In this document: in pieces, positions 1,172 through 49,757 of the stretch
Layout: every line of letters begins with the position of its first letter
Numbering within the stretch: position 1 is the first letter of the stretch
Assembly: GCA_963737125.1 (NCBI GenBank)
Contig: CAVTRL010000006.1
Span: 64,352-128,351 of the forward strand
Direction of reading: 5' to 3'
Origin: an uncultured Chloroflexia bacterium
Lineage (GTDB): Bacteria; Chloroflexota; UBA5177
Length of the DNA stretch: 64,000 nt
Notes under the pieces: generated by a model
The model's database searches: none
The model's input: the letters and a program-made list of their open reading frames with translations, nothing else
What the model was told of the DNA's origin: nothing
Position numbers and translations under genes: made by a program

Positions 1172-2506
1172 GTGACCAGACAGCGTAGGCTGCATCTATA
1201 TATCGCTGCGATCGGTCTTCTATCGGGTGCGCTTGCCGTGTACTGTCTTCTGCGCGTCGTCGCAATGCCGGCTCGTCACACAAACGACGAACTTCTTACG
1301 TCCGCAATTCTCATTATACTGACATCAGTATGTTTGCACCGCAGCGCATATTTGAGCGATTCAAGTGCGGTCAGCTTGGGCAGTATCGGCCAAATTGCCA
1401 CGCTAATCGTACTTCCGATGGAAAATGCGCTCCTCGTCATCATCATCTCGAAGGGTTTGAGTGAGATACTTCTCGTCACACGGAAACAGCGGCGCAGCTG
1501 GAGGGCGCTTGCGGTAAACGTCGGAGGCGCGGCTCTGGCCTCACTCGCCGGCATTGTGGCGTTTCATCTCGTTCCGGGTCACCAACACCTCTGGGACGCC
1601 AACCTCATGCCCGTGCTGGCTTTTCCAGCTCTCGTGGCCCTCGCAGCTGCTTACCACCTGACCGAATCTTTTATCGTGGCGGGGGCCATTACGTTGACCA
1701 GCAGTGAAACCCTCATGGCGATTTTCGGGCCATTGAACCGTGAAACGCTGCTTCCAGAGTTATCACTTATCGTGGTCGGGCTCATGTTCGGTGTGCTCTG
1801 GCATTATCGACCGGTTCTGTCTGCCCTGGTGGTGGTGCCGGTATTTTTTAGCCTGCGCTCTTTTGAGTCGGAGGCGCGGCTTCGTAAGGAAACGATTGAA
1901 GCCGTGCTAAAAATGGCGGAGAGTATCGACTATCGCGATACAGGAACCTATGAACACTCGCAACGGCTAGCAACCATGACAAAAGAGTTGGCCTATGCAG
2001 TGGGTCTTACTCCAGAGCACTCTACAGACATCGTGCTCGCGTCTCGCGTCCACGATCTTGGCAAGATAGGGATTAGCAACGACATCCTGCTGAAGCCGGG
2101 TTCGCTGACGCCGGAGGAACGTCACATCATGCAAGATCATCCATCCATCGGAGCGAATATCCTATCGAGTTATTCTGCCTTTCAGGGAAGTGTCAGTATT
2201 GTGAGGCACCATCACGAGCGATGGGACGGCCGGGGGTATCCGGAAGGCCTGAAAGGCAGCGAGATTCCGATCGGGTCCCGCATTATTACGGTTGTGGACG
2301 CGTTTGATTCCATGACAGCCGATCGACCATATCGCCGTGGCATGTCGGTAGACGACGCGGTCATCCGGCTCAAGGACGGCATGGGGACGCAATTCGATCC
2401 CAGGGTCTGTGCCACATTTATTCAGTTGTTGATCGAGCAAGGCACGTACTTACCGGTGCAATCATCGGTTCCCGAGCTGCACATTGTGGCGTACGACGCG
2501 GGATAA
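1172..2506 (+). CDS. Membrane-anchored HD-GYP domain phosphodiesterase (c-di-GMP signalling)
   Basis: The N-terminal ~230 residues are hydrophobic with multiple TM segments. The C-terminus carries HDLGKIGI....HHERWDGRGYP, the HD...GYP signature. Confidence 0.8.
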   Translation: MTRQRRLHLYIAAIGLLSGALAVYCLLRVVAMPARHTNDELLTSAILIILTSVCLHRSAYLSDSSAVSLGSIGQIATLIVLPMENALLVIIISKGLSEILLVTRKQRRSWRALAVNVGGAALASLAGIVAFHLVPGHQHLWDANLMPVLAFPALVALAAAYHLTESFIVAGAITLTSSETLMAIFGPLNRETLLPELSLIVVGLMFGVLWHYRPVLSALVVVPVFFSLRSFESEARLRKETIEAVLKMAESIDYRDTGTYEHSQRLATMTKELAYAVGLTPEHSTDIVLASRVHDLGKIGISNDILLKPGSLTPEERHIMQDHPSIGANILSSYSAFQGSVSIVRHHHERWDGRGYPEGLKGSEIPIGSRIITVVDAFDSMTADRPYRRGMSVDDAVIRLKDGMGTQFDPRVCATFIQLLIEQGTYLPVQSSVPELHIVAYDAG

Positions 2507-2536: not shown

Positions 2537-3808
2537 TTACCGTTGACTGCGAACGTCGCTCCGTAGCCACACGAACAGGCTTCCCGCCACAATCACCGCT
2601 CCCTCGACGATCCACAGGGATCGGTACGAAAATACGAGCAAGAGGGACCCGCCAAGGGTGGCGCCGAGAGCCAGGGCAGTATTTATCACGGTAAAACGCG
2701 CCGCCAGCACGCGGCCCCGAATTTCCGAAGGTGTCAGCGCCTGCACGAGCGTAACACCCGATATGACGAACAAGCTGTTGAACAGCCCGGCCAGCAGCAA
2801 GGCGCCGGTTGCTGCATAGATGTTTGTTAGAAATGCCAGCGAGCCGTCCGCCAACCCCATTCCGGTTATACCGATACCAAACAGGTAGCCTCTGGGCATA
2901 CTCTTCGCCAGCCGTCCGGCCGTGATGCTGCCTACCAATGCGCCGACCGCTTCCCCACCCTGTAAAACGCCGTAGCGAAACGCCCCGCTGCGAAGTGGCC
3001 CCACGACGCCAACGCCGCGGGCCAGCACGTGTTCGGCAAAGAGTGGCGTGAGAACGAAGGCCGCCCCGCCTGCGACTGGTGCGACGGCGAGAGCCACAGT
3101 GCTCCATTTCAAGAAAGGGCTTCCCATCAAGAAGCTGTAGCCGTCTCGAATACGGCCAGGGATCTCTCTCCAGGTCGGCGCATCACCACTGCGTACGGTG
3201 GGAATAGTCATGAATGACAGTAACGCCGCCGAAACAACAAAGGTCGCTGCGTCGATGTAAAACGGAACTTTGAGATTCAATGAGTAGATCAGAGCGCCAC
3301 CCAATAGATAGCCGAGATCTCCACCGGTCTCGACACTTTGCAGATACGCGTTCGCACCCATCATGCGTTGTTCCGGTACAACGTCGGGCAGTGCGGCCCG
3401 AGCTGCCATGTCGAACACAATCGTGAACGCATAGAGAGCTACGACCAGGGGATAGACGATCCATAAGTTGAGTAGCCCGAGCGAGGGAACGACGACCAGC
3501 ACCGCCGCGCGTCCGAGGTCGCAGGCGATCATCAGGCGCTGTCTGGATACGTGATCGATAAATACCCCGACGACGAGGCCGCCTACCAGCGTTGGTAAGA
3601 GCCGGCACACGTAAAACAGAGAGAGCGCCAGCGCGAATGAGTGTGATAGCGCGATGACGAGGAACGTCAAGGCGATCAGCGCAATGCGATCTCCAAGCAC
3701 CGACACAACCTTTGCTGTCAAGTAGTACTTGAAATTTCGTCCGTATTGCTGCACTTCATCTTCTAGCCCGCTCTGGGCCGGCGCACCCATCGAAGTCATC
3801 CCTCCCAA
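2537..3808 (-). CDS. MFS transporter
   Basis: 12-TM hydrophobic profile with MFS-type loops. The ORF track uses a TTG start at 3808; ATG at 3799 or 3790 is more likely. An RBS GGGAGG lies upstream. Confidence 0.75.
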   Translation of the reverse strand: MGGMTSMGAPAQSGLEDEVQQYGRNFKYYLTAKVVSVLGDRIALIALTFLVIALSHSFALALSLFYVCRLLPTLVGGLVVGVFIDHVSRQRLMIACDLGRAAVLVVVPSLGLLNLWIVYPLVVALYAFTIVFDMAARAALPDVVPEQRMMGANAYLQSVETGGDLGYLLGGALIYSLNLKVPFYIDAATFVVSAALLSFMTIPTVRSGDAPTWREIPGRIRDGYSFLMGSPFLKWSTVALAVAPVAGGAAFVLTPLFAEHVLARGVGVVGPLRSGAFRYGVLQGGEAVGALVGSITAGRLAKSMPRGYLFGIGITGMGLADGSLAFLTNIYAATGALLLAGLFNSLFVISGVTLVQALTPSEIRGRVLAARFTVINTALALGATLGGSLLLVFSYRSLWIVEGAVIVAGSLFVWLRSDVRSQR

Positions 3809-3824
3809 TAGCCTTTTTTTGGCG

Positions 3825-3838
3825 TTTTGGCGCCAAAA
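3825..3838. promoter_or_regulatory. Perfect 14-bp palindrome TTTTGGCGCCAAAA between divergent MFS gene and peptide array
   Basis: Read directly from the sequence. It lies in the divergent promoter region and is a candidate operator. Confidence 0.3.
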
Positions 3839-3929
3839 ACAGCCCAGAAGCCGTCTTGTCGGCAGGGCTGCCGGAAGTGAGTACTCATGCTCAGTCGAAA
3901 GGAGTAGAGGAGAAAAAATACAGTACCCC

Positions 3930-3958
3930 TTGACAGGGGGACTAAAGTCCTATAGGTT
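3930..3958 (+). promoter_or_regulatory. Sigma70-like promoter candidate (TTGACA-17 bp-TAGGTT) for the micropeptide array
   Basis: TTGACA sits at 3930-3935 and a TAnnnT hexamer 17 bp downstream. It is the only good -35 match in the 430-bp gap. Confidence 0.3.
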
Positions 3959-3976
3959 ATGTGACTAAGGTCACAT
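3959..3976. promoter_or_regulatory. Inverted repeat ATGTGAC-TAAG-GTCACAT overlapping predicted transcription start
   Basis: Perfect 7-bp arms. The position immediately after the -10 suggests a repressor operator. Confidence 0.3.
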
Positions 3977-4236
3977 TGGCCTCGACACGAAGTGCATCGA
4001 GAGTCAAGTAAAGCATGAGGAGGTCGGCGTATCGTGGCGCAATTCATCATCACTTTTTCCAGCGAGGGCGCGGAATTTGTGCAGGTAGCTGAACACGAAA
4101 CGCCCGGCGAGACAGGATACTCGTACTCGCCGACGAGTTCTCCGACACCTCGGTGTGGATGCCGAAACTTGTCAACCAAGTGTACTTCGCGTCATCAAAA
4201 GTGAGTAGCTCTAACGACTACCAAGGGAGTAGAACA

Positions 4237-4296
4237 ATGACCCATTTCGCCATCGACTGGATTGACACCGGTAAAGCAAAAGACTGGCTCGGCTAG
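4237..4296 (+). CDS. Micropeptide sORF copy 1 (MTHFAIDWIDTGKAKDWLG)
   Basis: ATG is preceded by AGGGAG-N8. 19 codons end in TAG. Confidence 0.5.
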   Translation: MTHFAIDWIDTGKAKDWLG

Positions 4297-4318
4297 ACCG
4301 TACTGGAGGAGGTACATC

Positions 4319-4378
4319 ATGACCCATTTCGCCATCGACTGGATCGACACCGGTAAAGCAAAAGACTGGCTCGGCTAG
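4319..4378 (+). CDS. Micropeptide sORF copy 2 (MTHFAIDWIDTGKAKDWLG)
   Basis: GGAGGAGG-tacatc-ATG. Differs from copy 1 only by a synonymous att->atc Ile codon. Confidence 0.5.
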   Translation: MTHFAIDWIDTGKAKDWLG

Positions 4379-4400
4379 ACCGTACTGGAGGAGGTACATC

Positions 4401-4460
4401 ATGACCTATTTCGCCATCGACTGGATCGACACCGGTAAAGCAAAAGACTGGCTCGGCTAG
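4401..4460 (+). CDS. Micropeptide sORF copy 3 (MTYFAIDWIDTGKAKDWLG)
   Basis: GGAGGAGG RBS. Carries cat->tat (H3Y). Confidence 0.5.
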   Translation: MTYFAIDWIDTGKAKDWLG

Positions 4461-4482
4461 ACCGTACTGGAGGAGGTACATC

Positions 4483-4542
4483 ATGACCTATTTCGCCATC
4501 GACTGGATTGACACCGGTAAAGCAAAAGACTGGCTCGGCTAG
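4483..4542 (+). CDS. Micropeptide sORF copy 4 (MTYFAIDWIDTGKAKDWLG)
   Basis: GGAGGAGG RBS. Y3 with the att Ile codon. Confidence 0.5.
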   Translation: MTYFAIDWIDTGKAKDWLG

Positions 4543-4564
4543 ACCGTACTGGAGGAGGTACATC

Positions 4565-4624
4565 ATGACCTATTTCGCCATCGACTGGATCGACACCGGT
4601 AAAGCAAAAGACTGGCTCGGCTAG
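4565..4624 (+). CDS. Micropeptide sORF copy 5 (MTYFAIDWIDTGKAKDWLG)
   Basis: GGAGGAGG RBS. Last copy; unique sequence follows it. Confidence 0.5.
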   Translation: MTYFAIDWIDTGKAKDWLG

Positions 4625-4741
4625 TCACCCCAACGTAGACACACGCAAAGTTTCGGCGTTCTTGCCGCCTTTGCTTATTGAAGTCCCGCTCAGTGTCATC
4701 TACTTTGAGCGATATGAACTTCGATCTCTCCGTTATCACAT

Positions 4742-4785
4742 CACCCGGCAACGCACTCGTGCGGCTGCCGGGTGTTCTGTTTTCC
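4742..4785 (+). terminator. Rho-independent terminator after the sORF array
   Basis: A 9-bp stem CACCCGGCA/TGCCGGGTG with an internal sub-stem is followed by TTCTGTTTTCC on the + strand. There is no U-tract on the minus strand. Confidence 0.5.
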
Positions 4786-4843
4786 AGGCTGCCTTCGCAT
4801 CGTGTTCCACTAGTTCTGTACGGGTGCCAGGTCGAGCTCTTCA

Positions 4844-5773
4844 TTACAGGCTGTGTGCAAAGACCAGCGTTTCTTCAGCCAACCGCACGCGATCTTCAAG
4901 GCTCTTCATTACGATCTCGGTGCACAACACTGCTATGCCGAGTGCCTCGATCTCGGGCACCTGAGCGCTATCACTCGATGAGATAACGATGCCGTCGATA
5001 CTTTCCTTATACAGTGCTGCCACACCAACCGATTGGGCTTCGTGTCCCAGCAGTGTCATGAGCTTCCCGGCCGGCCCACTCACTGCCTGCGTTCCAACCA
5101 TCGGACTGACTGCCACGCGTTTGGCAGACGTCGCTTGAAGTGCCTGGAGCATACCAGGCGTGTGGAGAATTGGCAAGATACTCAGGGCAGGATTGGAATT
5201 CACCAGCACCACGACCTCGGCTCGATTTACAGCATCCAGCGCGCCTGATGTTGCAGCCGCATGCTCGATACCGTCGTATCGTACCGCTGCAACATCGACG
5301 CGATGGCGTCGGTGCACAAAGTACTCTTGAAATTCTATCCATGCTCCGTCGACCAGAAGTCTAGTAGTAACGACATCTTCCGTCATGGGGACGACGTTTG
5401 CTCGCACCCCAAGACTATGCGCGATGTTGCGCGTGACTGCCGTCAGCGATGTTCCATTTGCCAACGCGTGCGTTCGGTACACGTGCGTGGCAATGTCGCG
5501 GTCACCAATCCCGAACCAGGTTGGCAGACCGTACCGTTCGAGCATCGAGAGCGCGCCAAAGGTGTCTCCGTCAATTCCCCACCCTTGTTCCAGCGGCGAC
5601 AGGCCGGCGAGCGTGTAGCACACGGTGTCCAGATCGGGGCAGACTCGTAGTCCGAGGAACTCGACGTCGTCACCGGTATTGACGACTACTGACAGCTCGT
5701 CATCGGGGACACTTCGATACAGTCCGTGAGTCAGCTTCGACCCGCCGACGCCCCCGCACAGCGCGGTAATCAT
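4844..5773 (-). CDS. cofD: 2-phospho-L-lactate transferase CofD/FbiA (F420 biosynthesis)
   Basis: MITALCGGVGGSKL...VVNTGDDVEFLGLRVCPDLDTVCYTLAG matches the CofD/FbiA signature region closely. Confidence 0.85.
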   Translation of the reverse strand: MITALCGGVGGSKLTHGLYRSVPDDELSVVVNTGDDVEFLGLRVCPDLDTVCYTLAGLSPLEQGWGIDGDTFGALSMLERYGLPTWFGIGDRDIATHVYRTHALANGTSLTAVTRNIAHSLGVRANVVPMTEDVVTTRLLVDGAWIEFQEYFVHRRHRVDVAAVRYDGIEHAAATSGALDAVNRAEVVVLVNSNPALSILPILHTPGMLQALQATSAKRVAVSPMVGTQAVSGPAGKLMTLLGHEAQSVGVAALYKESIDGIVISSSDSAQVPEIEALGIAVLCTEIVMKSLEDRVRLAEETLVFAHSL

Positions 5774-6390
5774 CGAAGATCGACAACCTCGGTGAACGGC
5801 CGCCGCTCTCGCACCTTACCGGACGCCGACGCATATCCCAGAAGCGCGAGCGCCTGCGGCTCAAAATCTCCCGGAAGCGACAACACATCGCGGACCGCAG
5901 CGGGGCAATACATGGGCGCAGCCAGCCAGCACGAACCGATCCCTCGCCGCCAAGCCGTGAGAAAAATTGTCTGCAGAACCGCGCCCAGGCTTTGTACTGC
6001 CATTTGCCATTCGAGTGCGGCTCGCCGTTCATCGACGTATTCCACCAGGCCAGTGGAAACGAGCGACACCACAAGTACCACCGGAGCGCTCGTGACCCGC
6101 CACAGCGATCGATCTACTTGCCTTTCGATACTCTCCAGTGACAGTCCATCGGCCTGTAAGTCAACTTTGAGACGCTCGCCCATAGCCTCAGCGAGCCGAA
6201 GCTTTTCGCCGTCGTCAAACAGTCCGGTGAAGCGCCACGGCTGAACGTTATGAGGCGATGGTGCCCACTGCGCAACGCGCAATATGTCCGCGATGGCGTC
6301 ACGCGGCACGGGCGTCGGAAGAAAATGTCGCACCGACCGCCGGCTCCGAATAAGGTCTTCCACTTCCGCACAGGGCGCGCCCACCACCAT
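5770..6390 (-). CDS. Nitroreductase-family protein (FbiB C-terminal-domain-like), translationally coupled to cofD
   Basis: The nitroreductase fold motifs are RRSVRHF...PSPHNVQPWRF. Its stop overlaps the cofD start (ATGA). Confidence 0.6.
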   Translation of the reverse strand: MVVGAPCAEVEDLIRSRRSVRHFLPTPVPRDAIADILRVAQWAPSPHNVQPWRFTGLFDDGEKLRLAEAMGERLKVDLQADGLSLESIERQVDRSLWRVTSAPVVLVVSLVSTGLVEYVDERRAALEWQMAVQSLGAVLQTIFLTAWRRGIGSCWLAAPMYCPAAVRDVLSLPGDFEPQALALLGYASASGKVRERRPFTEVVDLR

Positions 6391-6511: not shown

Positions 6512-7510
6512 TTGGTCCTCGTCCGGTCAAAGTGGCATGGAGAATCTGTTAGAATCAGCGACAGAATGCTGGTCCACTTTGCCGATGGCGTAGAGCGGGC
6601 CGGCCATGACCAGTCAAAGGAGTACGGTGTGGAAACGGGCACGTGGAAGGCAAAAGTAGGGCTGGCGCAAATGCTCAAGGGCGGCGTCATTATGGACGTG
6701 GTGAACGCCGAGCACGCGCGAATCGCGGAAGAGGCGGGTGCGGTCGCCGTTATGGCGTTGGAGCGCATACCGTCCGATATCCGGAAGGCAGGCGGCGTGG
6801 CTCGGATGAGCGATCCTCTTTTGATTGAGGAAATTCAGCATGCCGTGACTATTCCCGTAATGGCGAAATGCCGTATCGGCCATTTCGCGGAGGCGCAAAT
6901 TCTGGAGGCGCTCGGTGTCGATTATATCGACGAGAGCGAAGTGTTGACGCCTGCGGACGACAAATATCACGTCAATAAACACACGTTTACGGTCCCGTAC
7001 GTGTGTGGCGCACGCGATCTGGGAGAGGCGTTACGGCGGATCGGTGAAGGTGCGGCGATGGTGCGCACCAAGGGCGAAGCCGGTTCGGGCAATATCGTCG
7101 AGGCAGTGCGCCATATGCGCGCCATGGTCGACGGCATTCGTCACGTTGCGTCACTTTCCATCGAGCAGCTTGCGGGTGCGGCGAAAGATCTACAGGCTCC
7201 ATTCGAGCTGGTGCAGTACGTGCACGAGCACGGAAGCCTGCCAGTCGTGAATTTCTGCGCGGGAGGCGTGGCGACACCAGCCGACGCGTCGTTGATGATG
7301 CAGCTGGGCGCCGACGGTATCTTCGTCGGGTCCGGGATCTTCGCCAGCGACAATCCGTCCAAGCGAGCTCGAGCCATCGTCGAAGCAACGACGCACTACG
7401 ACGATCCAGCGGCCGTCACAAACGCCAGTCGCGGCCTCGGTGAAGCGATGCGTGGGCTCGAGATCAGCGCGATCCCGGAACGCGAATTGCTGGCGGCACG
7501 AGGCTGGTAG
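6512..7510 (+). CDS. pdxS: Pyridoxal 5'-phosphate synthase lyase subunit PdxS
   Basis: [36 protein letters not shown]...[27 protein letters not shown]. The true start is probably internal (about 6566). Confidence 0.9.
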
Positions 7511-8097
7511 TGCCGGCGATCGGTGTCCTGGCGCTCCAGGGGGACGTCGCCGAACACGGCGAGATGCTGGCGGGGCTGGGCGCCCAGCCCCGCTTTGTGA
7601 AACGCGCGGACGAACTCGATGCGGTTGACGGCCTGATCATCCCCGGCGGAGAAAGTACGACGATCGGCAAGCTATTGCGTCGCTTCAACTTGATCGAACC
7701 ACTACGGGCGCGCATCGATGCCGGATTTCCAGTGTACGGCACGTGTGCCGGTATGATTCTCCTGGCAGATTGCATCGAGGACGCGGCTGAGGATCAACCC
7801 TCACTTGGCGGCATGGACCTCACGGTGCGCCGCAACGCCTTTGGCCGTCAGCGAGAAAGCTTCGAAACCGATCTCGATGTGCCTGCGTTGGGGACAGACA
7901 CCTTGCATGCCGTGTTCATTCGTGCTCCTTTAGTAACCCGGCTGGGCTCGAGAGTCGAGCCGCTCGCAACACTATCCGATGGGCGTGTCGTGGCGGCCAG
8001 GCAGGACAACCTGCTTGTGACTTCATTCCATCCAGAGCTAACCGACGATCCACGAATGCATCGATACTTTGTGGACATGGTCGAGGGTCAAGCATAG
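7510..8097 (+). CDS. pdxT: Pyridoxal 5'-phosphate synthase glutaminase subunit PdxT
   Basis: IGVLALQGDV..HGEML...IIPGGESTT...GTCAGMILL is the class I glutamine amidotransferase PdxT signature. Its start overlaps the pdxS stop by 1 nt. Confidence 0.9.
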   Translation: MPAIGVLALQGDVAEHGEMLAGLGAQPRFVKRADELDAVDGLIIPGGESTTIGKLLRRFNLIEPLRARIDAGFPVYGTCAGMILLADCIEDAAEDQPSLGGMDLTVRRNAFGRQRESFETDLDVPALGTDTLHAVFIRAPLVTRLGSRVEPLATLSDGRVVAARQDNLLVTSFHPELTDDPRMHRYFVDMVEGQA

Positions 8098-9574
8098 CGC
8101 GGTGACAACCTTCGCCGACATCGACTTCGCCTCGGGAGCCGCGCTCCACCGCCAGGTCTATGTGTCACTGCGGGCTGCAATCTTGAGCGGACGCCTGGCT
8201 GCCGGGGCACGTCTCCCCGCCACGCGCGTCCTCGCACAACAGCTCTCGGTGTCTCGATCGACGGTATCGGATGCGTACGATCAGCTCCAATCCGAGGGCT
8301 ACATCGAAGGACGCCACGGATCCGGAACGTACGTCGCACCCAATCTTCCGGAGGACCGGACATCCGGTAGAGGGCCGGCCGCCTCGAACTCCGGGGCTGC
8401 GGCCGGTACGCGGTCGTACTCTCGCTGGGGAGAAAACGTCATCCGGTCCGCAGCATCCGGCACGGGGGCGGGGACCGAAGGCGAGCACTTCGAATACGAT
8501 TTCCGGCCTCACCGGGTCGCGCAGGATATGTTTCCGTGGGACGCGTGGCGAGCAGGTATCGACCGAGCATTGACGAACAATCGCGATGCTCTCTTTTACG
8601 CTCCTGCCGCCGGCCACCCCGCATTGCAGGAAACGATCGCCCGCCATATCGCCAAGCATCGGGGTGTGGTGTGTACGCCCGATCAGATCGTCATCGTGAA
8701 CGGCACTCAACAGGGCCTGAATCTACTGGCCGATCTCCTACTCGAGGAAGGAGAGCGGGTCGCGGTCGAGGATCCGGGATACCCGGCTGCCAGATTGGCA
8801 TGGGAGGCGCGTGGACTCGAAATCACGCGGATTCCGGTAGACGCCGAAGGCATCATGGTGGACGAGTTCGTGAAGCGGGGCCCATTTCGACTCGTCCATG
8901 TCACGCCGTCTCACCAGGACCCGACTGGCGCGACACTGTCTCTTCCGCGGCGGCTGGCGCTGCTCGATGCAGCGCGGCGCACCGGGTGCGTCGTGCTGGA
9001 GGATGACTACGACAGCGAGTTCCGCTATGAGGGTCGGCCCGTGGAGTCGTTGCAGGGACTCGACAACGCCGGTCTGGTGGTGTATGCAGGGACGTTTTCA
9101 AAGTCGGTGCTGGCCGGTCTGCGCATCGGCTTTGTCGTCTTACCGTCCCACCTCGTGGGACCGTTCGTAGCGGCCAAATCTACCTGGGACAGCGGCGCGC
9201 CGATGTTGGAGCAGTTAGCGCTGGTGGAGTTCATGCGATCCGGCATGTTTGAGAAACATATCCGGCGAATGCGGCGCGTCTATCGTGCCCGCCGGGATGC
9301 ATTGGTCGATTCCCTGAAATCGACATTTGGAGAGAGCATCCACATCGGTGAGCGACATGGGGGCCTGAATGTATTGGTTCGGTTCGATGTGTCGTTTGCC
9401 GCCGGCGAACTGGCTGAAAGGGCGCGCGCTGACGGAATCGGACTTCGCACCGCATCGTCGTATTACGAGCATTCCCTGGATGGCGTCACATTGCTGATGG
9501 GATTTGCGGCCATACCGGAACAAACGATCGCGGACGGAGTAGCAGCCCTGGCTCGGTGCATGCGCAACCGGTAG
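8069..9574 (+). CDS. MocR/GabR-family transcriptional regulator (GntR HTH + PLP aminotransferase-like domain), PdxR-like
   Basis: An N-terminal GntR HTH (LPATRVLAQQLSVSRSTVSDAYDQLQSEGYI) precedes a ~380-aa aminotransferase class I fold. The likely true start is the GTG at 8102, just after the pdxT stop. Confidence 0.8.
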   Translation: MWTWSRVKHSAVTTFADIDFASGAALHRQVYVSLRAAILSGRLAAGARLPATRVLAQQLSVSRSTVSDAYDQLQSEGYIEGRHGSGTYVAPNLPEDRTSGRGPAASNSGAAAGTRSYSRWGENVIRSAASGTGAGTEGEHFEYDFRPHRVAQDMFPWDAWRAGIDRALTNNRDALFYAPAAGHPALQETIARHIAKHRGVVCTPDQIVIVNGTQQGLNLLADLLLEEGERVAVEDPGYPAARLAWEARGLEITRIPVDAEGIMVDEFVKRGPFRLVHVTPSHQDPTGATLSLPRRLALLDAARRTGCVVLEDDYDSEFRYEGRPVESLQGLDNAGLVVYAGTFSKSVLAGLRIGFVVLPSHLVGPFVAAKSTWDSGAPMLEQLALVEFMRSGMFEKHIRRMRRVYRARRDALVDSLKSTFGESIHIGERHGGLNVLVRFDVSFAAGELAERARADGIGLRTASSYYEHSLDGVTLLMGFAAIPEQTIADGVAALARCMRNR

Positions 9575-9671
9575 CGAGAGTCGCGTAGCAGAGGTATGGC
9601 AACTCGTAGACGGGCTTGCAAGCCAGATTACGCGGCCACGGCAAGAGGTATAACGGAACGATGAAAGCGGT

Positions 9672-9748
<77 letters not shown>

Positions 9749-9820
9749 AAGTCGCTGTTTCATCGTAAGTGTAGTCACTTCCCCGGCAAACAGGCAAAGA
9801 CGGGATGGCCCTGCATGCCG

Positions 9821-12634
9821 CTAAGCTCCCAGCAGCAAGGACCGATACCGGCCGTACAAGTACGATACTCCGAGCAGGATCACGCCGAGCCCGACAAATG
9901 AGATGCTTCGGTACAGGCTCTGCAGAAACGACAGGTCGTAGATGAACACCTTCAAGATGATGAAGCCGAAAAGGGACATCGAACCAATCCGCATCCAGCG
10001 GGTCCGCCGCCATAGTCCGATGCCCATGAGAGCAATCGCATAGGCGAGCCACAGGCCAGACAATGTCAGCTGTTCAAGACTTCGGAGCTGATTCGAATCC
10101 GTCAGGGCACTGGCCGACGTCGACGCCGCATGATCGAAGAAATCCCGTGTCTCGCCGGTGATGAGCTCGAAGCCGAGGACCACAATCGCGGCCTGGAAAA
10201 CTACCAGAACGGAGTCGAGCCAACGGTATAGCGCCCTTGCGTCTTTGGTCCATTGCAGGTGGAGGTAGAGGCCGAGCATCAAGAGCGGGATCATCACCGC
10301 TCGTGTCCCCAGAACGAATGGCAACCGATCGATAGGTTGAGCGGCGAAGCCGCAGTACAGTCCGCTCCCGATAGCAACGCCCGAACATCCCAGGCCCGCG
10401 GCCAGCAGCGTTTGAGATGACTTACGCAGGCCATTCCACACCAGGAAGAGTGAATAGACCATCCACGTTATGCCAAGCGCTACAAACTCCGAAAACAGCC
10501 CGACGTCATGCGTGGTCTGCGTGAGGTGACCGGCTGAGCGAGCGAAATAATCGTTGACCTCGGCGGTCAGCAGCTCAAAGCCGACCAGAATTAATGCGGC
10601 CTGGAACCCGATGCGGACGGTTGCCAGCCATGGGAAAGCATCGACCTCGTCCCGTAACCAGCGGAAGTGGACGTACAACGCCCCCATTATGGCCACGAGT
10701 AAACCGGCTCGCAGATTCAAAGCCGGCGTGTAGCTTTGCACCGGCTGATATGCCGCTCCACTCCACGCGCCCAGAACCACGCCAAGCACCGCGCAGCCGA
10801 GACCGCAGAGCAATACGGGCAAAATTCGTCGCCGCAACCCCAACCGCACGAATAGCAATCCAAGGAGCGTCCACACACCGGCCAGCGCCAGAGATCTGAA
10901 ATAGTGCAGTGCGGTGAGATGAGTCCCACTTGCACCTACGAAGGTGCGTCGAAAAACGTCGTTGGTTTCGACCGTGAGTCCGATGAAGGCGATACCACTC
11001 CAGCCCGAGTGCAGCGAAGTCCAGATGGGCTGGACGTATTTGTCGCGCAGCGTACGCACAAGCGCCGTATCGATGGCCAGTCCACCGGCGAGAACCGCGA
11101 AGGCAAGGAATCGGAGGTTGAATACCGGCACGAATCCGCCGATTGGCTCGTAGGCGAGGGCGTTTGCGGTTCCGGCCAGCCATACAGCTGCCAGGCCAAG
11201 TAGTACCAGCGCCGGCTGCCAGATGCAGCGGAGATTCCACCGAGTTCCGCACCAGAACAGCGCCACGGCTTCAAACGACCAAATCACAACCGTGATAAAG
11301 CTCGCTGTAAGCAGCGCGGTGCCAATGACCAAAAGCGTTAGACCGGACAACGTGAAGCGAACGTCCACCAGGTCGCCGTCACGCAGCGACCGGCGCAGCA
11401 GCAGAATTGTCGATCCGTACACGGCACCGATCATCAGACTGACGACACCGATTATCGCCCGGTGAGAGGGAAACATGAGTATGAACATGAGTCCGTAGTA
11501 CGCCACGGTGTTGCCCGAGGCCACGAGAGTGCGCAACCTCTGGAAGGCCGGCGCTCCGGATCTGATGTGCCACACATCCAAGGAGTAAAACACGAGCCAA
11601 AAGAGGGAGAGTGCGATCGCCGCGGTCCCAAGTTGATTGGAATGATACGACACGAGGAACCAGGAGAGATAAACGGCGTACGTCGCCACGAGCGATAGCA
11701 CCTCAAGCGACAGCCATGCCTTCTTCCTCAGGACGATGCCGATGATCCCCAGGTCGAGTATCAGCACGTAAGCAATAACGCCCACCGCCTGGCTGCCGGA
11801 AGAGCTCAGCAGAAACGGCGTAAGGAAACCTCCACCCGTCGCCAGTACCGCGACGGCCAGCGAATCGTAGTACAGAGATTGCGAGAAGGCAACGGCGGTC
11901 ACGCCGCCCAGCGCGACAAACGCGATGGAAAGTGGTACCAGGTGGTAGAAGTTGTACGATGCGTAGGCCGAGAGATACAGAATAGCCAGTCCAGCTCCCA
12001 CCAGCCCCTGTGCAAAGATGGCGTACCCTCTGGCATATGACCGATGTGCGAGTGCGAGTAAGATGACGCCGACCACAATGCCGACACCCACCTGCGCGCC
12101 CTGTTTGATCCAGTTATTGTCAAAGGCGTACTTGAGAAAAAAAGCAAGACCGAGGATCAGCGCAATTGCCCCGACGCGATTGAGCCAGTTGCCGCCGATA
12201 AGCGCTTCCCACTCATCGCTGGTTCTGGCGCGGGCCATGAACCTCTCAGCCCACGATGGGCCTTCCGGCTTCCTTTTCGACGCCACGTCGGCGGCAATCG
12301 CTAAGGCAACAGCTAGCCCTGGTGCGACCTCTTCCACGACCGGTTGTGGCGTTGCGCTCGTAGCTGGAATCTGAGACTGGGCGAGCGCAGGACGGCGACG
12401 CCTGGGCGAAGGTGCAACGCCAGAGGCAGGGGTCTTCGCAGAATCGTCCTCGGCTACGGCCATCATGTGAACGCGTGTATTGGTCAGGGACAACTCGTGG
12501 TCAAGAGTCCGTACACGCGTCTCGAGCTTCGAGGTTCGGGAACCAAGCCACAGGATGCGACCAACACAGAATACGAGGCCAATTGCGAAAAACCATTCCA
12601 CCGGTCTGCTCCCTTCACGTCGCTCGCGCCACAC
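9821..12634 (-). CDS. Large polytopic membrane protein (DUF2339-like)
   Basis: 937 aa. An N-terminal short coiled segment is followed by more than 20 predicted TM helices with internal repeats. The family assignment is from recall only. Confidence 0.55.
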
Positions 12635-47212: not shown

Positions 47213-48847
47213 TCAAATTTCCTGTAGTGCGTGAGTTTCGAGCACAAACTCCGTAAGAAGCGTCTTGTATCCGACCTCGTCGAAAAGAACGATTACCTCA
47301 TCGTCCTCGTAGCGTTCAACCACACCGGTGCCGAAGACAGAATGAGCAACGCGCGTTCCCAGCGCGAAGGGAACATCCACAGTGGCCGGCGCGACTTCTC
47401 CATGCGCGTCGCACACATCGCAATTGCCGCACGGAGTGGCATACGCTTCGCCGAAATAATTCAAGATGTACTCGCGCCGGCAGTGCGTAAGCTCAGCATA
47501 CCCGCGCATCATGTCGATTCGGGAACGCTTGGTGATTCGTCGACGATCGGCTTCACGGACTGCCTCCTCGACAATATTCTCTCGACTGTCTAAATCTTGC
47601 AGTTGCTCGACATCGCCGCTGGGCGCGATGGCCACCACTCCCGCGTCTTCCAGCATGGTCAACGCCGTCGTCAGCTTTGCTTGAGAGAGGCCGCTCTCCT
47701 CAAGGATCTCGCGCTGCGCGACCATCTCGTCACCATTGTCGACGGCCTCTAAAACACTGAATACGTGTTCCTCGCGCACCTGCCCACCACCGGCAAAAAA
47801 TTGGTGGATGCCGAGATCCTCGGGTCGGTAGAGAAGCAGAGCGGAGGCCGGTTCACCGTCCCGGCCGGCACGCCCGATCTCCTGGTAGTACGAGTCCACG
47901 GACTCCGGGATATCGAAATGAAACACAAACCGGAGATTCTTTTTGTCGACGCCGAGACCGAACGCATTGGTGGCAACGAGCACATCGAGCTCATCCTCCA
48001 TAAAGGCCCGTTGCGTTTCCTCGCGTTCCTCGACCCGCATTCCGGCATGATAAAAAGCGGATCGCGGCACTGCAGCGCTGCAACGCGAGTGCGACCTCTT
48101 CGGCATGCTTCCGGGTCGCCGTGTACACAATCCCCGGTTTGGAAGCGCCTACCACTTTTTCCACCAGGGTCCTTTGCTTCACCGACTCTTCGTGGCACCG
48201 CTCCACGCCGAGCCAAATATTGGGCCGATCGAATCCCTGAATCAGGACATTGGGCTCGCGCAAATGAAGACGGCTTATGATGTCGTCGCGTACTAACGAG
48301 GACGCGGTCGCCGTCAAGGCGAGTACCGTGGGGTGACCAAGGGCGTCGATAACGCTGCCTAGCCGGAGAAAATCCGGTCGAAAATCTTCGCCCCAATCGC
48401 TCACACAATGAGCTTCATCCACGACAAAGAGCGACGGGTGAGCATCACATATCCGTTGCAACGTCGCCTCGTCGCGAAACTGCTCGGGGCCGGTAAACAG
48501 AAACCGGCCACTTTCCCGATCCAACCCCGTGAGGATGGCGTTGCGCTCGGCTCGGGTAATCGTGGAATTCAACACGGTTGCGTCCGTCGACCCGTTACCA
48601 TTCAAACGGTCAGATTGGTCGCGCTGCAGTGCGATAAGAGGTGAAATCACGACGATCGGGCCTTTAAGCATCATGCCTGCGATCTGATACGTGGCGGATT
48701 TTCCCGATCCTGTCGGCATGACTGCGAGCGTGTCTCGCTTCTCGAGCACCGAGTGGATAACCGTTTCCTGCGCCTCGGTGAGGGATTCAAATCCAAGCGT
48801 GTCGCGCGCGATACGGCGCATGTCCCGCGTATCGGTAGTGGTCGTCA
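47213..48847 (-). pseudogene. recQ: ATP-dependent DNA helicase RecQ, interrupted by a +1 frameshift in an A5/T5 run
   Basis: ORFs 47991..49127 and 47213..48130 are consecutive parts of one RecQ (DEAH box [13 protein letters not shown]; then ...AFYHAGM...VATNAFGLGVDKKNLRFVFHFDIPESVDSYYQEIGRAGRDG). The frames switch at plus-strand aaaaa 48052-48056. Removing one base restores [15 protein letters not shown], the same length as E. coli LQSKGISAAAYHAGL. Confidence 0.75.
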
Positions 48848-49007
48848 TTCGTTTGTCTCCGGGTAAAGTGCCCCGCTCGCGCGCGGCCCTCGGGACAAGA
48901 GCAAGCTGCGTACCACGCGACCACCGGCGCTGCGTCTGGGGTGCTTTCGGGTACCGCTCCCGACTCCGAGGAGCCATAATAAAGTACGACACACTCCGAC
49001 GCATCCA

Positions 49008-49757
49008 ATGGGCGCCATCATCGAACAAGGAGAAAGACCAGGAGCCATGGCAAATGCTAAGGCGGATGCACGGGCGAACGAGAGTGACGCCGACAAGGCA
49101 GATAGCGCCTGGGGGCGGGTAGCTCAACGCGAGCCACGCTGGCCTGCCGCGGTCGCGGTCATCATTGCGCTTGTCCTGTATGTCACGCTTCCCGATAAAC
49201 TCACGTTCGGGCCGAAGTGGCTGTTGCCGGGACTCGAGGCTGCCCTGTTGCTGCCCTTAATGGTCACATCACCCGATCGCGACGATGAGGAAGCGCGCTG
49301 GCAGCGTATAAGCGCGCTGGCGGTGATCGCGATCATCAATCTCGCGAACGTCGTATCGCTGGTATTCCTGGTACACGAGCTGCTCCGCGGGAAGGCATCC
49401 AACGGTCACCAACTCATTTTCTTTTCCGTGCAGATCTGGGTAACGAACGTGATCGTCTTTGCCCTGTGGTATTGGGAGCTGGATCGCGGTGGCCCGGGTA
49501 AACGCTGCCGGCAGATGCACCGCGAACCGGATTTTCTCTTTCCTCAGATGTCGACACCGGGGGCGGCACCTGAAAACTGGTACCCATCGTTTATCGATTA
49601 CACGTACGTGTCGTTTACCAACGCCACAGCGTTTAGCCCGACCGACACCATGCCATTGACCGAGTGGGCGAAAATCCTGATGATGATTCAGTCGCTGGCA
49701 TCACTCATCACCGTCGCGCTGGTAGCCGCACGGGCGGTCAACATTCTGGGAGGGTAA
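49008..49757 (+). CDS. Membrane protein (DUF1345-like)
   Basis: Four to five TM helices. The family is from recall only. Confidence 0.35.

Follow-up and report, generated by a model that had tools for sequence, protein, structure and literature searches.

The tandem array at positions 4237-4624 of the window (the whole 64-kb stretch of DNA analysed here) consists, judged by how its homologues vary, of a genuine, translated 19-codon gene in five tandem copies, and sequence comparison places it in a hitherto unannotated family of small peptides limited to one uncultured Chloroflexota lineage. The explanation that we favour for the locus as a whole, with a probability of roughly 0.55, is that of a c-di-GMP-linked, dosage-amplified family of translated peptides exported by the linked MFS_3 transporter. 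The short open reading frames (sORFs) and the features around them are as follows.

1172-2506, plus strand: gene for a membrane-anchored HD-GYP c-di-GMP phosphodiesterase, convergent with the MFS gene (Pfam HD_5 and HD)
2537-3808, minus strand: gene for an MFS_3 (EntS-like) transporter, divergent from the sORFs (Pfam MFS_3 and MFS_1)
3930-3958, plus strand: inferred promoter of the sORF transcript (TTGACA at 3930-3935, 17-nt spacer, TAGGTT at 3953-3958)
3959-3976, plus strand: second operator-like inverted repeat, ATGTGAC-TAAG-GTCACAT, just 3' of the -10 hexamer, read from the sequence
3977-4236, plus strand: long 5' leader whose interior shows no sequence conservation and no recognisable riboswitch
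4223-4229, plus strand: Shine-Dalgarno sequence of sORF 1, AAGGGAG, orthologous to aagggagtagcaccATG in the related locus L002
4237-4296, plus strand: sORF 1, MTHFAIDWIDTGKAKDWLG, stop TAG; homologues show a coding-type substitution pattern
4319-4378, plus strand: sORF 2, MTHFAIDWIDTGKAKDWLG, with GGAGGAGG at 4305-4312
4401-4460, plus strand: sORF 3, MTYFAIDWIDTGKAKDWLG, with GGAGGAGG at 4387-4394
4483-4542, plus strand: sORF 4, MTYFAIDWIDTGKAKDWLG, with GGAGGAGG at 4469-4476
4565-4624, plus strand: sORF 5, MTYFAIDWIDTGKAKDWLG, with GGAGGAGG at 4551-4558
4742-4783, plus strand: intrinsic-terminator-like hairpin, CACCCGGCA...UGCCGGGUG, then UUCUGUUUU, from RNA folding

The array and its transcription signals

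Tandem Repeats Finder returned one array in the whole 64-kb window, at 4237-4624, with a period of 82, 4.7 copies, 98% matches and 0 indels. Both the repeat finder and a reading of the sequence confirm the array that the initial annotation had described, namely five 19-codon ORFs, each with a TAG stop, with the product MT[H/Y]FAIDWIDTGKAKDWLG. Its “five perfect 82-bp units” stand as to the five ORFs and the period, but the array is made up of only four complete units followed by the 60-nt last ORF. Similarly, each sORF does have a ribosome-binding site (RBS) of its own, as had been claimed, but the consensus arrangement GGAGGAGG-N6-ATG precedes only four of them (sites at 4305, 4387, 4469 and 4551, against 0.01 expected by chance), sORF 1 using AAGGGAG instead. 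The copies vary at the same two positions that had been reported: codon 3, CAT/TAT (His/Tyr), and codon 9, ATT/ATC, a synonymous Ile change; copies 1-2 encode MTHFAIDWIDTGKAKDWLG and copies 3-5 MTYFAIDWIDTGKAKDWLG. All four combinations of the codon-3 and codon-9 variants are present, which requires recombination between units or recurrent mutation and, because the spacers are identical too, the window copies appear to have been recently amplified or homogenised. ORFs of 51-63 aa that span the array on the reverse strand were rejected as either not conserved in relatives or by-products of the repeat. The same organism has also been assembled independently from short reads (L001, run ERR11594400). 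That assembly matches window positions 6444-4595 at 99.9% and ends 30 nt into the last unit; it thus confirms the flank and its junction with the array, with the copy number of five resting on the source assembly.

On the evidence of the signals that surround them, the sORFs are a transcription unit of their own. A promoter with operator-like inverted repeats probably starts their transcription, both in the window and at twelve other loci. The motif TTGAC[ACT]-N17/18(GGnCnAAAGTCC)-TAnnnT is found in 12 of the 13 aligned family loci (L008 has TTGAAG), 66-278 nt upstream of the first sORF; L129 is without the conserved motif, and L132 is excluded from the tally. In the window the inverted repeat GGACTAAAGTCC, at 3939-3950, falls inside the 17-nt promoter spacer, and a simple consensus scan missed this promoter because of its weak -10 hexamer. 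The operator motif GGACTWWAGTCC occurs a single time in the window and has no regulon within it. The second repeat, at 3959-3976, is a putative repressor or activator binding site, and motifs related to AAGGTCC/AAGGTCAC occupy the equivalent position in other loci.

When the region from the promoter to sORF 1 is aligned with L002, L003 and L004, only the promoter itself and the ~30 nt that directly precede the ATG prove to be conserved. An Rfam scan (E <= 1) identified no riboswitch in the window leader, and a candidate 56-aa leader ORF at 4034-4204 was dropped, as it is not conserved in relatives. Downstream of the array, the fold of 4622-4800 has a free energy of -58.3 kcal/mol (z = -3.76), equalled by 0 of 200 shuffles, and a pattern scan found a smaller hairpin at 4654-4667. 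The hairpin at 4742-4783 would stop the sORF transcript ahead of the convergent cofD gene.

A family of sORFs under codon-level constraint

Homologous sORFs are present in at least 16 related loci from uncultured Chloroflexota, with the copy number ranging from 1 to 5 when the window is included. Nine of these relatives were reached by synteny through MFS orthologues (L002-L008, L129 and L132): at the syntenic position L002 has 3 copies, L003 has 4, L004 and L129 have 3 each and L132 has 2, while L005, L006, L008 and L007 each have a single sORF, that of L007 with 2 modules. Scanning metagenomes for the motif IDWIDPxK yielded at least 120 matches; of the matches listed most fall by chance within long ORFs, and at least seven are true members. 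These members, found by peptide motif alone (L033, L071, L077, L089, L104, L099 and L127), adjoin an MFS gene in six of seven cases, the seventh being cut by the contig end. The repeat period in relatives is 80-84 nt, with 160 nt in L099.

The peptides share an N-terminal motif, (E)IDW[ITN][DE]PxK, in which the window has Thr where the others have Pro, and a variable, fast-evolving C-terminal module whose last residue is Trp or Phe; no module residue is invariant across the family, and L008 is without the module Trp. Modules have been multiplied by two routes, repetition of the whole unit of sORF, stop codon and RBS (1-5 sORFs) or in-frame repetition of the module within one ORF (2-4), with multi-core ORFs in L033, L104, L129 and L132; the intragenic repeats are 24 or 27 nt long, so the reading frame is kept. 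In L132 the N-terminal (E)IDWxDPxK motif is itself duplicated in frame. All are hydrophilic and acidic or neutral (net charge 0 to -5, GRAVY -0.04 to -1.41, helical hydrophobic moment 0.04-0.26), without a signal sequence or hydrophobic stretch, and most have a central Pro or Gly. Features that would suit self-assembly include an invariant D10 and K13 around a Pro-x turn, alternating strand aromatics, and repeats rich in Gly, Asn and aromatic residues.

Comparison of paralogous copies within relatives points to translation. Across these copies 22 of 23 variable sites lie at the third codon position (pN ~0-0.03, pS 0.14-0.72); under random placement, at least 22 of 23 at third positions would be expected with P ~5e-10 (binomial). 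By locus, the counts are 8 of 8 in L003 (all synonymous; pS 0.47, pN 0), 12 of 13 in L002 (pS 0.72, pN 0.03) and 2 of 2 in L004. The C-terminal half has a pN of 0.18-0.29 between clades. Spacers vary in both length and sequence, yet the Shine-Dalgarno sequence and start codon are kept in every copy. Third-position drift, variable copy number and differing spacers together argue for translated genes under purifying selection. This bears out the initial annotation's plus-strand micropeptide genes, and its proposed check, copy-number variation with persisting codon-level conservation, came out in favour of coding; a search among relatives for a retained repeat with a broken ORF or RBS, which it had named as evidence to the contrary, uncovered no case.

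The view that these peptides belong to no described family also holds, in that neither protein families nor predicted proteins nor the literature offer a match to the family variants queried. NCBIfam has no match at E <= 10 for the window peptide, and other variants produced at most sub-threshold matches, such as that of one multi-module relative to HxsA4 (17.7 bits, cut-off 55). Pfam Bacteriocin_IIi reached 13.4 bits against a cut-off of 25, on an artificial concatenated query only. Neither the concatenated window peptides nor the L033 multi-module peptide matched anything at E <= 10 in a predicted-protein collection of 5.8 billion clusters. The sole match from an exhaustive HMMER search of 1.84 billion cluster representatives, between a 3336-residue protein (P0102) and a 47-residue extended ORF (E 1.5e-4), was judged to be chance or an unrelated ‘FIDWIDP’ motif. 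Exact-peptide 8-mer scans of viral contigs, GTDB species representatives and JGI metagenomes gave no confirmed relative, because the Thr11/Gly12 variant of the window is unique; GTDB representatives also contained no close relative of the window MFS protein. No Rfam family matches the array, and full-text literature searching found nothing relevant to the array or the family.

Linked genes and c-di-GMP riboswitches

An MFS orthologue lies within ~2.5 kb of the sORFs in every family locus with enough flank, a linkage kept even where the sORF has moved to the other side of the MFS gene, and the divergent MFS_3 protein is our candidate exporter of the peptide. Matches of the window protein to the NCBIfam H+ antiporter/EntS-like models fall below their cut-offs. 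In line with the initial annotation, which named it as the nearest transporter, it is the sole transporter gene nearby, the nearest ABC transporter genes in the window being more than 10 kb from the array. The HD-GYP gene is syntenic with the sORFs in every locus whose flank extends that far; its translation carries an HHERWDGRGYP signature, and the N-terminal ~230 residues are hydrophobic and, by eye, apparently multi-pass. A functional tie between this protein and the peptides may exist. Gene order in the lineage (ParA-FtsZ-DUF402-HD-GYP-MFS-cofCD) is strongly syntenic overall, and so the MFS and HD-GYP linkage could reflect inherited gene order, not functional coupling. The sORFs have on their 3' side a terminator and, in convergent orientation, cofD or cofC (window, L002-L005, L008, L129 and L132).

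The absence of an adjacent maturase that had been reported extends across the window: some 50 ORFs screened over the 64 kb include no radical SAM, YcaO, lanthipeptide synthetase, P450 or ATP-grasp enzyme and no dedicated peptidase. Precomputed Pfam gene calls, available for the surroundings of nine related loci, list no such modifying enzyme either; around the seven metagenome-scan loci the screen covered synteny genes only. Three extra genes beside the sORF in L007, L071 and L089 have no domain matches, are missing in sister loci and were treated as an insertion.

A pointer to c-di-GMP comes from two distant loci of clade E, L129 and L132, where the sORFs lie directly behind two tandem c-di-GMP-II aptamers. 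Against a gathering score of 53.5 for RF01786, the two aptamers of L129 reach 62.4 and 53.0 bits and those of L132 reach 61.4 and 54.3 bits; the second L129 aptamer also scores 46.3 bits against the variant model RF03169 (gathering score 40). A terminator comes after each aptamer, its 5' half overlapping the 3' end of that aptamer, a layout from which c-di-GMP would be expected to turn expression on. In Firmicutes, adhesin genes are known to lie behind tandem c-di-GMP riboswitches. L129 and L132 resemble c-di-GMP-II regulons in having two complete aptamer-plus-terminator units in series, and differ in that the genes controlled are only sORFs of 14-46 codons, in Chloroflexota; a literature search found no paper joining c-di-GMP-II with Chloroflexi. 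Neither the window nor the other 12 loci scanned contain a c-di-GMP-II aptamer, and the window clade has instead a promoter of protein-operator type, so that the c-di-GMP link in the window rests on HD-GYP synteny and on these distant relatives.

Candidate functions and known systems

Under the explanation that we favour, the peptide would be an output of c-di-GMP signalling and would be made in large amounts, as strong Shine-Dalgarno sequences and the amplification of genes or modules suggest. The MFS_3 transporter would export it, intact or after cleavage into modules, and the adjacent membrane HD-GYP phosphodiesterase would supply the c-di-GMP link or feedback; outside the cell, the peptide might serve as a signal, a matrix or self-assembling component, or a chelator. 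MFS_3 transporters export small molecules, and we know of no precedent for an MFS transporter that exports a peptide of 19-46 residues. Being acidic, hydrophilic and without a signal sequence, the peptides would fit a cytoplasmic role equally well.

Several known systems share parts of this layout. The streptide-like K(i)-W(i+4) spacing to which the initial annotation drew attention does not extend to the family: K13-W17 (i+4) is confined to the window clade, the spacing being i+5 in L005, L099 and L007 but i+7 in both L129 and L132, Arg or Gly rather than Lys opens the repeated modules, and L008 is without a second Trp. As KxxxW is not conserved, the analogy fails; in addition, no radical SAM occurs among the window ORFs screened or the related-locus gene calls, no radical SAM/SPASM StrB-like maturase or StrC-like partner is adjacent, and no curated precursor model was matched. 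The proposed resemblance to phenol-soluble modulins (PSMs) survives in gene layout and falls away in peptide character. Like psm-alpha of Staphylococcus aureus, the array has head-to-tail genes of ~20 codons, probably on a single short transcript, each with its own RBS, and no signal peptide or modification enzyme. PSMs, which are under Agr control, form amphipathic helices of cationic or neutral character and depend on the Pmt ABC transporter for export; the present family has hydrophilic peptides, acidic or neutral and without amphipathic character (moment 0.04-0.26, against 0.44-0.60 for PSM-alpha3 and delta-toxin), the window copies are identical rather than diverged paralogues, there is no sequence similarity, and the linked transporter is MFS_3 in place of the dedicated Pmt-type ABC transporter by which psm-alpha products leave.

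Multi-core precursors of ribosomally synthesised, modified peptides (RiPPs; streptide StrA, cyanobactin, prochlorosin and HxsA-type precursors) are similar in their conserved N-terminus, hypervariable C-terminus, repeated cores, tandem precursor genes and nearby exporter. A generic leader/core pattern can be drawn here as (E)IDWxDPxK plus 1-4 variable modules, with the ‘leader’ duplicated in L132 and no defined cleavage site; the differences from those systems are the lack of a maturase in the loci and ORFs examined, a putative leader of only ~12 residues and the lack of a precursor-model match. Leaderless bacteriocins (aureocin A70, garvicin KS and enterocin L50) also come from tandem, leaderless, Trp-containing small genes with an RBS each. 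They are strongly cationic, membrane-active peptides of 30-50 residues, encoded with an ABC transporter and immunity genes, whereas the net charge here is 0 to -5 and Bacteriocin_IIi remained sub-threshold. Microcin C7 likewise pairs a tiny peptide gene (the 7-codon mccA) with an MFS exporter, MccC; mccA shares its operon with the modifying enzymes MccB, D and E, of which the sORF locus has no counterpart. Three further candidates fit poorly: an attenuator of trpL/TnaC type, given the terminator and convergent cofD/cofC with no same-strand gene downstream; type I toxin arrays (Ibs, Ldr), the peptides being hydrophilic with no hydrophobic stretch; and a His-Xaa-Ser system (HxsA), given the 17.7 bits against 55 and no radical SAM neighbours found.

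A more ambitious reading, which we hold only tentatively, is that the family represents a new class of peptide product, c-di-GMP-induced, built of leaderless Trp/Phe modules, MFS-exported, and either a new RiPP class or a self-assembling matrix peptide. In the former case an unlinked enzyme of a new kind would mature the peptide, with a ~12-residue recognition motif and repeatable cores; in the latter the product would be a self-assembling matrix peptide, like a beta-hairpin or beta-solenoid; in either, gene or module amplification would set module dosage. It seems unlikely, if arguable, that the peptides are RiPP precursors, in which an (E)IDWxDPxK leader would direct an unlinked enzyme (forming, for example, an aromatic cross-link) to Trp/Phe module cores ahead of cleavage and MFS export. 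The classic precursor layout is seen in the hypervariable C-terminus behind a conserved N-terminus, in the multi-core ORFs and in the multi-copy genes, an MFS pump suits a processed product of 6-9 residues better than a whole peptide on general grounds, and there is the sub-threshold resemblance to HxsA4, a repeat-containing radical-SAM substrate; against these stand the missing modifying enzyme or dedicated peptidase in the ~50 window ORFs and the nine loci with gene calls, the in-frame duplication of the putative leader motif in L132, and modules that share no invariant residue, conserve no KxxxW and, in L008, have no Trp. More doubtful still is a non-exported intracellular small protein that acts stoichiometrically, for instance on the MFS transporter, the HD-GYP protein or c-di-GMP signalling. 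Regulation of transporters by small proteins has precedents (SgrT, MntS, AcrZ), and such a role would agree with hydrophilic, acidic peptides without a signal peptide, with the lack of a maturase in the ORFs and gene calls screened, and with tight MFS/HD-GYP linkage and the clade E riboswitches. However, known transporter modulators are generally single-copy and many, such as AcrZ and KdpF, membrane-embedded, repeated independent amplification of genes and modules points to a bulk or multivalent product, and the rapid evolution of the C-terminal half (pN 0.18-0.29 between clades) contrasts with the conservation of its MFS and HD-GYP partners.

Two remaining alternatives concern the array itself. 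That the sORF is real while its five-copy number was inflated or collapsed in assembling an 82-bp repeat is improbable: the short-read Logan assembly of the same organism does break inside the array, but two variant sites order distinguishable units, a series of a kind that assemblers do not invent, independent assemblies of relatives show 2-4 copies, and the biological conclusion is independent of the exact number. We consider it highly improbable that the 82-bp repeat acts as DNA or RNA without being coding, or that it encodes leader peptides whose translation, rather than product, matters. The window by itself cannot tell coding from non-coding, since its units are near-identical, spacers included, and the long leader could suit such an element; relatives argue strongly against this reading, conserving the ORF only, at the amino-acid level, and neither spacers nor period, while single-copy members (L005, L008) exist and Rfam has no match to the array. 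With a terminator and convergent cofD/cofC in place of any same-strand gene downstream, there is also nothing to attenuate.

Peptide genes this short escape standard annotation, and we find here a family that appears conserved, under purifying selection and elaborately regulated across an uncultured Chloroflexota lineage. The independent multiplication of modules, by tandem genes or by in-frame repeats, suggests selection on how much product is made or on its valency. In some members the sORFs are the only genes behind paired c-di-GMP-II riboswitches; if the c-di-GMP link is true, a micropeptide would be a dedicated output of c-di-GMP signalling, an arrangement of which, to our knowledge, there is no description. 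The family may offer a testable way into the signalling or natural-product biology of Chloroflexota, a phylum of which few members are in culture.

The sORF array, its neighbourhood and its relatives

Tandem Repeats Finder identified a single tandem array in the 64-kb window (period 82, 4.7 copies, 98% matches, no indels), in which five 19-codon ORFs, starting at 4237, 4319, 4401, 4483 and 4565, all end in TAG. The encoded peptide is MTHFAIDWIDTGKAKDWLG in copies 1-2 and MTYFAIDWIDTGKAKDWLG in copies 3-5. The copies differ at two positions, codon 3 (CAT/TAT) and codon 9 (ATT/ATC, synonymous), and since all four combinations of these variants are present along the array, recombination between units or recurrent mutation is required. 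The initial annotation gave every ORF its own consensus ribosome-binding site; this holds for four of them, the window having four instances of GGAGGAGG-N6-ATG where chance alone would give 0.01, whereas the first ORF has AAGGGAG-N7-ATG in its place. That the locus is real is indicated by L001, an independently made short-read assembly from this organism, which agrees with window 6444-4595 at 99.9%; L001 ends 30 nt into the last unit, so that the copy number of five comes from the source assembly only.

Features in the window around the array
47-517, +, FtsZ, C-terminal part
528-1061, +, DUF402
1172-2506, +, HD-GYP protein
2537-3808, -, MFS_3/EntS-like transporter, divergent from the array
3930-3976, predicted promoter
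4237-4624, +, sORF array
4742-4783, strong hairpin and U-tract 3' of the array (fold z = -3.8)
4844-5773, -, cofD, convergent
5770-6390, -, FbiB-C-terminal-like nitroreductase
6512-9574, +, pdxS, pdxT and PdxR-like regulator
9675-9748, -, tRNA
9821-12634, -, DUF2339

The HD protein has an HHERWDGRGYP signature and a hydrophobic N-terminal region of ~230 residues with several apparent membrane spans, on inspection by eye rather than with a predictor. No cofC separates cofD from the array in the window (4625-4844) or in the closest relative, L002 (1-450); the gene occupies that position in L003 (4511-5113), L004, L008, L099, L127, L129 and L132; tblastn detected no cofC homologue anywhere in the window. 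Elsewhere in the window, a RecQ-type helicase is apparently split between overlapping ORFs at 47213-48130 (-) and 47991-49127 (-), one with DEAD and ResIII and the other with Helicase_C and RecQ_Zn_bind, which could reflect a frameshift, a pseudogene or an assembly error.

Peptide queries found no match in NCBIfam or Pfam, among 5.8 billion predicted-protein clusters, or in viral contigs or GTDB representatives, and exact 8-mers of the peptide had none in metagenomes. The MFS protein has about 96 orthologues at 47-76% identity, below which identity falls sharply to 33% or less; every orthologue bearing a name is a "Chloroflexota bacterium" MAG. All seven orthologue contigs examined have the same neighbourhood and homologous intergenic sORFs beside the MFS gene, and around homologues at 30% identity (L130, L131) the neighbourhood is unrelated. 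A scan of metagenomes with back-translated IDWIDPxK added at least seven further true members, with many chance matches among those listed.

Clades of the sORF family (MFS identity is to the window)
Clade A: window, L002, L003, L004, L127; identity at least 64% where the MFS gene is in the locus; 5, 3, 4, 3 and at least 1 copies, respectively (L127 ends at a contig edge); 19-mers MTHFAIDWIDPNKSRDWVG, MTQFAIDWIDPSKSRDWVG, MTMYGIDWIDPCKTKSWTG, MTKFGIDWIDPSKAREWNG
Clade B: L099; 57%; 2 copies, 160 nt apart; MVYEIDWIDPIKNDHQWGG
Clade C: L005/L006, L008; 49-52%; single copy; MVHEIDWIDPIKSDNNWT; (GTG)VYEIEWLDPVKRDKIVTF
Clade D: L007, L033, L071, L077, L089, L104; about 58-63%; one ORF; (TTG/GTG)ARTIDWIDPAKNVHNWEG, then 1-3 more in-frame RNVHNWEG modules
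Clade E: L129, L132; 48-49%; 2-3 ORFs of 14-46 codons; MYACEIDWTEPKGEHGVNWTRSEHGVNWSYGEHGVNWTYGEHGVNW; MTAYEIDWNEPKTEHCVNFAKGEHCVNFAKGEHCVNFAKGHCVNW

Family-wide, an N-terminal motif, (E)-I-[D/E]-W-[I/L/T/N]-[D/E]-P-x-K, precedes one to four short modules, each of which ends in Trp or Phe. The Logan run that yielded L001, ERR11594400, also holds the L005/L006 organism (as L006), with its single-copy sORF MVHEIDWIDPIKSDNNWT compared with five copies in the window's organism, so different peptide variants coexist in one community.

Two further sequences emerged from the searches. The single match of an exhaustive HMMER search (E 1.5e-4) was one of a group of giant proteins (L094, L103 and L109, ORFs of 3138-3766 aa; P0102, 3336 aa) whose conserved stretch ...GFIDWIDPIKGKLPGP... 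resembles the sORF core motif; the likeness is probably coincidence, and the common IDWIDPxK stretch could be a structural motif. An unrelated short reading frame, ...IPRERAASICPRSIDWIDPRKISA(M/I)*, recurs among the motif-scan matches in several unrelated metagenomes, mostly near contig ends (L009 1454, L017 33, L056 73, L100 2586, L079 373); it has no Rfam match at its site and may mark where a mobile or repeated element ends.

Coding constraint on the repeats

Whether the repeats are genes or a non-coding element can be judged from how paralogous copies have diverged in the relatives. All eight variable sites in L003 are third-position and synonymous (pS 0.47, pN 0), 12 of 13 in L002 are at third positions (pS 0.72, pN 0.03), and both in L004 are synonymous; at least 22 of 23 changes at third positions would, by our own calculation, have a probability of about 5e-10 if positions were random. 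Spacers vary in length and sequence (period 80-84 nt, 160 nt in L099), each copy has an ATG, GTG or TTG start with a Shine-Dalgarno sequence 6-9 nt 5' of it, and L099 has unrelated flanks, yet its two ORFs are distinguished by a single synonymous change and by their stop codons. From clade to clade the N-terminal motif hardly changes and the C-terminal half evolves fast (pN 0.18-0.29). This divergence as coding sequence, with diverged spacers, bears out the plus-strand reading of the initial annotation, and its proposed check for a repeat persisting with broken ORFs found this in no locus. Judged on these substitution patterns, the sORFs form a real micropeptide gene family under selection, predicted to be translated. 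Intragenic repeats stay in frame because they are 24 or 27 nt long, and dosage is amplified by two routes within the family.

In the ENA contig L004, cofD, cofC, FtsZ and ParA are fragmented into several calls (3016-5477, 9293-10967), pointing to an indel-prone assembly; the three L004 sORFs are intact despite this, with a peptide sequence identical to that of L003.

Constant linkage and predicted regulation

The gene order is cofC/cofD →, ← sORF(s), MFS →, ← HD-GYP in every clade except D. There the sORF has been relocated between the MFS and HD-GYP genes, with loss of adjacency to cofCD, so it has remained beside both genes through a rearrangement. The MFS gene is also present in six of the seven loci found via the peptide alone, the seventh ending at a contig edge. 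Linkage to the MFS_3 transporter and the predicted membrane HD-GYP phosphodiesterase is constant. Three genes (266, 128 and 195 aa, no recognisable domains) are inserted between sORF and MFS gene in L007 (9017-10791, -), L071 and L089 (7321-8377), and are absent from L104, L077 and L033.

The sORFs form their own transcription unit with predicted regulation. An unusually conserved predicted promoter is common to 13 loci, consisting of TTGAC[ACT] (TTGAAG in L008), a 17-18-nt spacer containing GGnCnAAAGTCC, TAnnnT and a second AAGGTCC-like inverted repeat; the leader to the first ATG (66-278 nt) is not conserved. Up to three AAAGTCC/AAGGTCC-like elements, ~22-24 bp apart, lie 5' of the -35 element, within the spacer and 3' of the -10 element (window 3918-3976 and the equivalent in 12 loci). 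They co-vary between clades (GGACTAAAGTCC vs GGCCGAAAGTCC) and look like a putative regulator site; no candidate regulator gene is adjacent to the promoter region.

The clade E member L129 is without this promoter motif. Both clade E loci instead have, immediately 5' of the sORFs and on their strand, two tandem c-di-GMP-II aptamers.

c-di-GMP-II riboswitch pairs (Rfam RF01786, gathering score 53.5)
L129 4485-4722, -, 62.4 and 53.0 bits (second aptamer against the GAG variant: 46.3 bits, gathering score 40)
L132 1829-2066, -, 61.4 and 54.3 bits

A hairpin with a U-tract comes after each aptamer, its 5' half overlapping the aptamer's 3' end; by the usual logic ligand binding would prevent termination, and we infer that these are ON switches. 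The only genes under these units are the 14-46-codon sORFs, an unusual target, in metagenome contigs of Chloroflexota, an unusual phylum for this riboswitch class. Neither the window nor the other clades have a detectable riboswitch.

Comparison with known peptide systems

Similar gene layouts are known from psm-alpha, multi-peptide bacteriocins and multi-copy RiPP precursors. The closest formal resemblance is to RiPP precursors, with a conserved N-terminus, variable, repeatable C-terminal cores and multi-copy genes. Against this, the "leader" motif is itself duplicated in frame in L132, and, as the initial annotation noted beside the array, no maturase was found in the window ORFs screened or the gene calls of related loci; a Pfam scan of ~50 window ORFs found no radical SAM, YcaO, lanthipeptide, P450 or other RiPP-type enzyme. 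The streptide-like Lys-Trp resemblance suggested there falls away, as the family lacks a conserved KxxxW and the genes screened include no radical SAM. A PSM or leaderless-bacteriocin type is opposed by net charge (0 to -5), GRAVY (-0.04 to -1.4) and helical hydrophobic moment (0.04-0.26), a type I toxin by peptides that are not hydrophobic, and an attenuator by the lack of a same-strand gene downstream of the sORFs.

D10 and K13, both invariant, lie on either side of a Pro-x turn, with aromatic and aliphatic residues alternating on both sides, and clade E repeats are rich in Gly, Asn and aromatics. A hypothetical structure would be a beta-hairpin or beta-repeat, perhaps able to self-assemble or to bind a partner. 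The peptide would be an output of c-di-GMP signalling, made in bulk and exported through the MFS pump, either intact or in modules. The sORF family corresponds to nothing among the family models, predicted proteins and papers searched; as far as our searches tell, the peptide family, its control by c-di-GMP riboswitches and its two modes of amplification are new.
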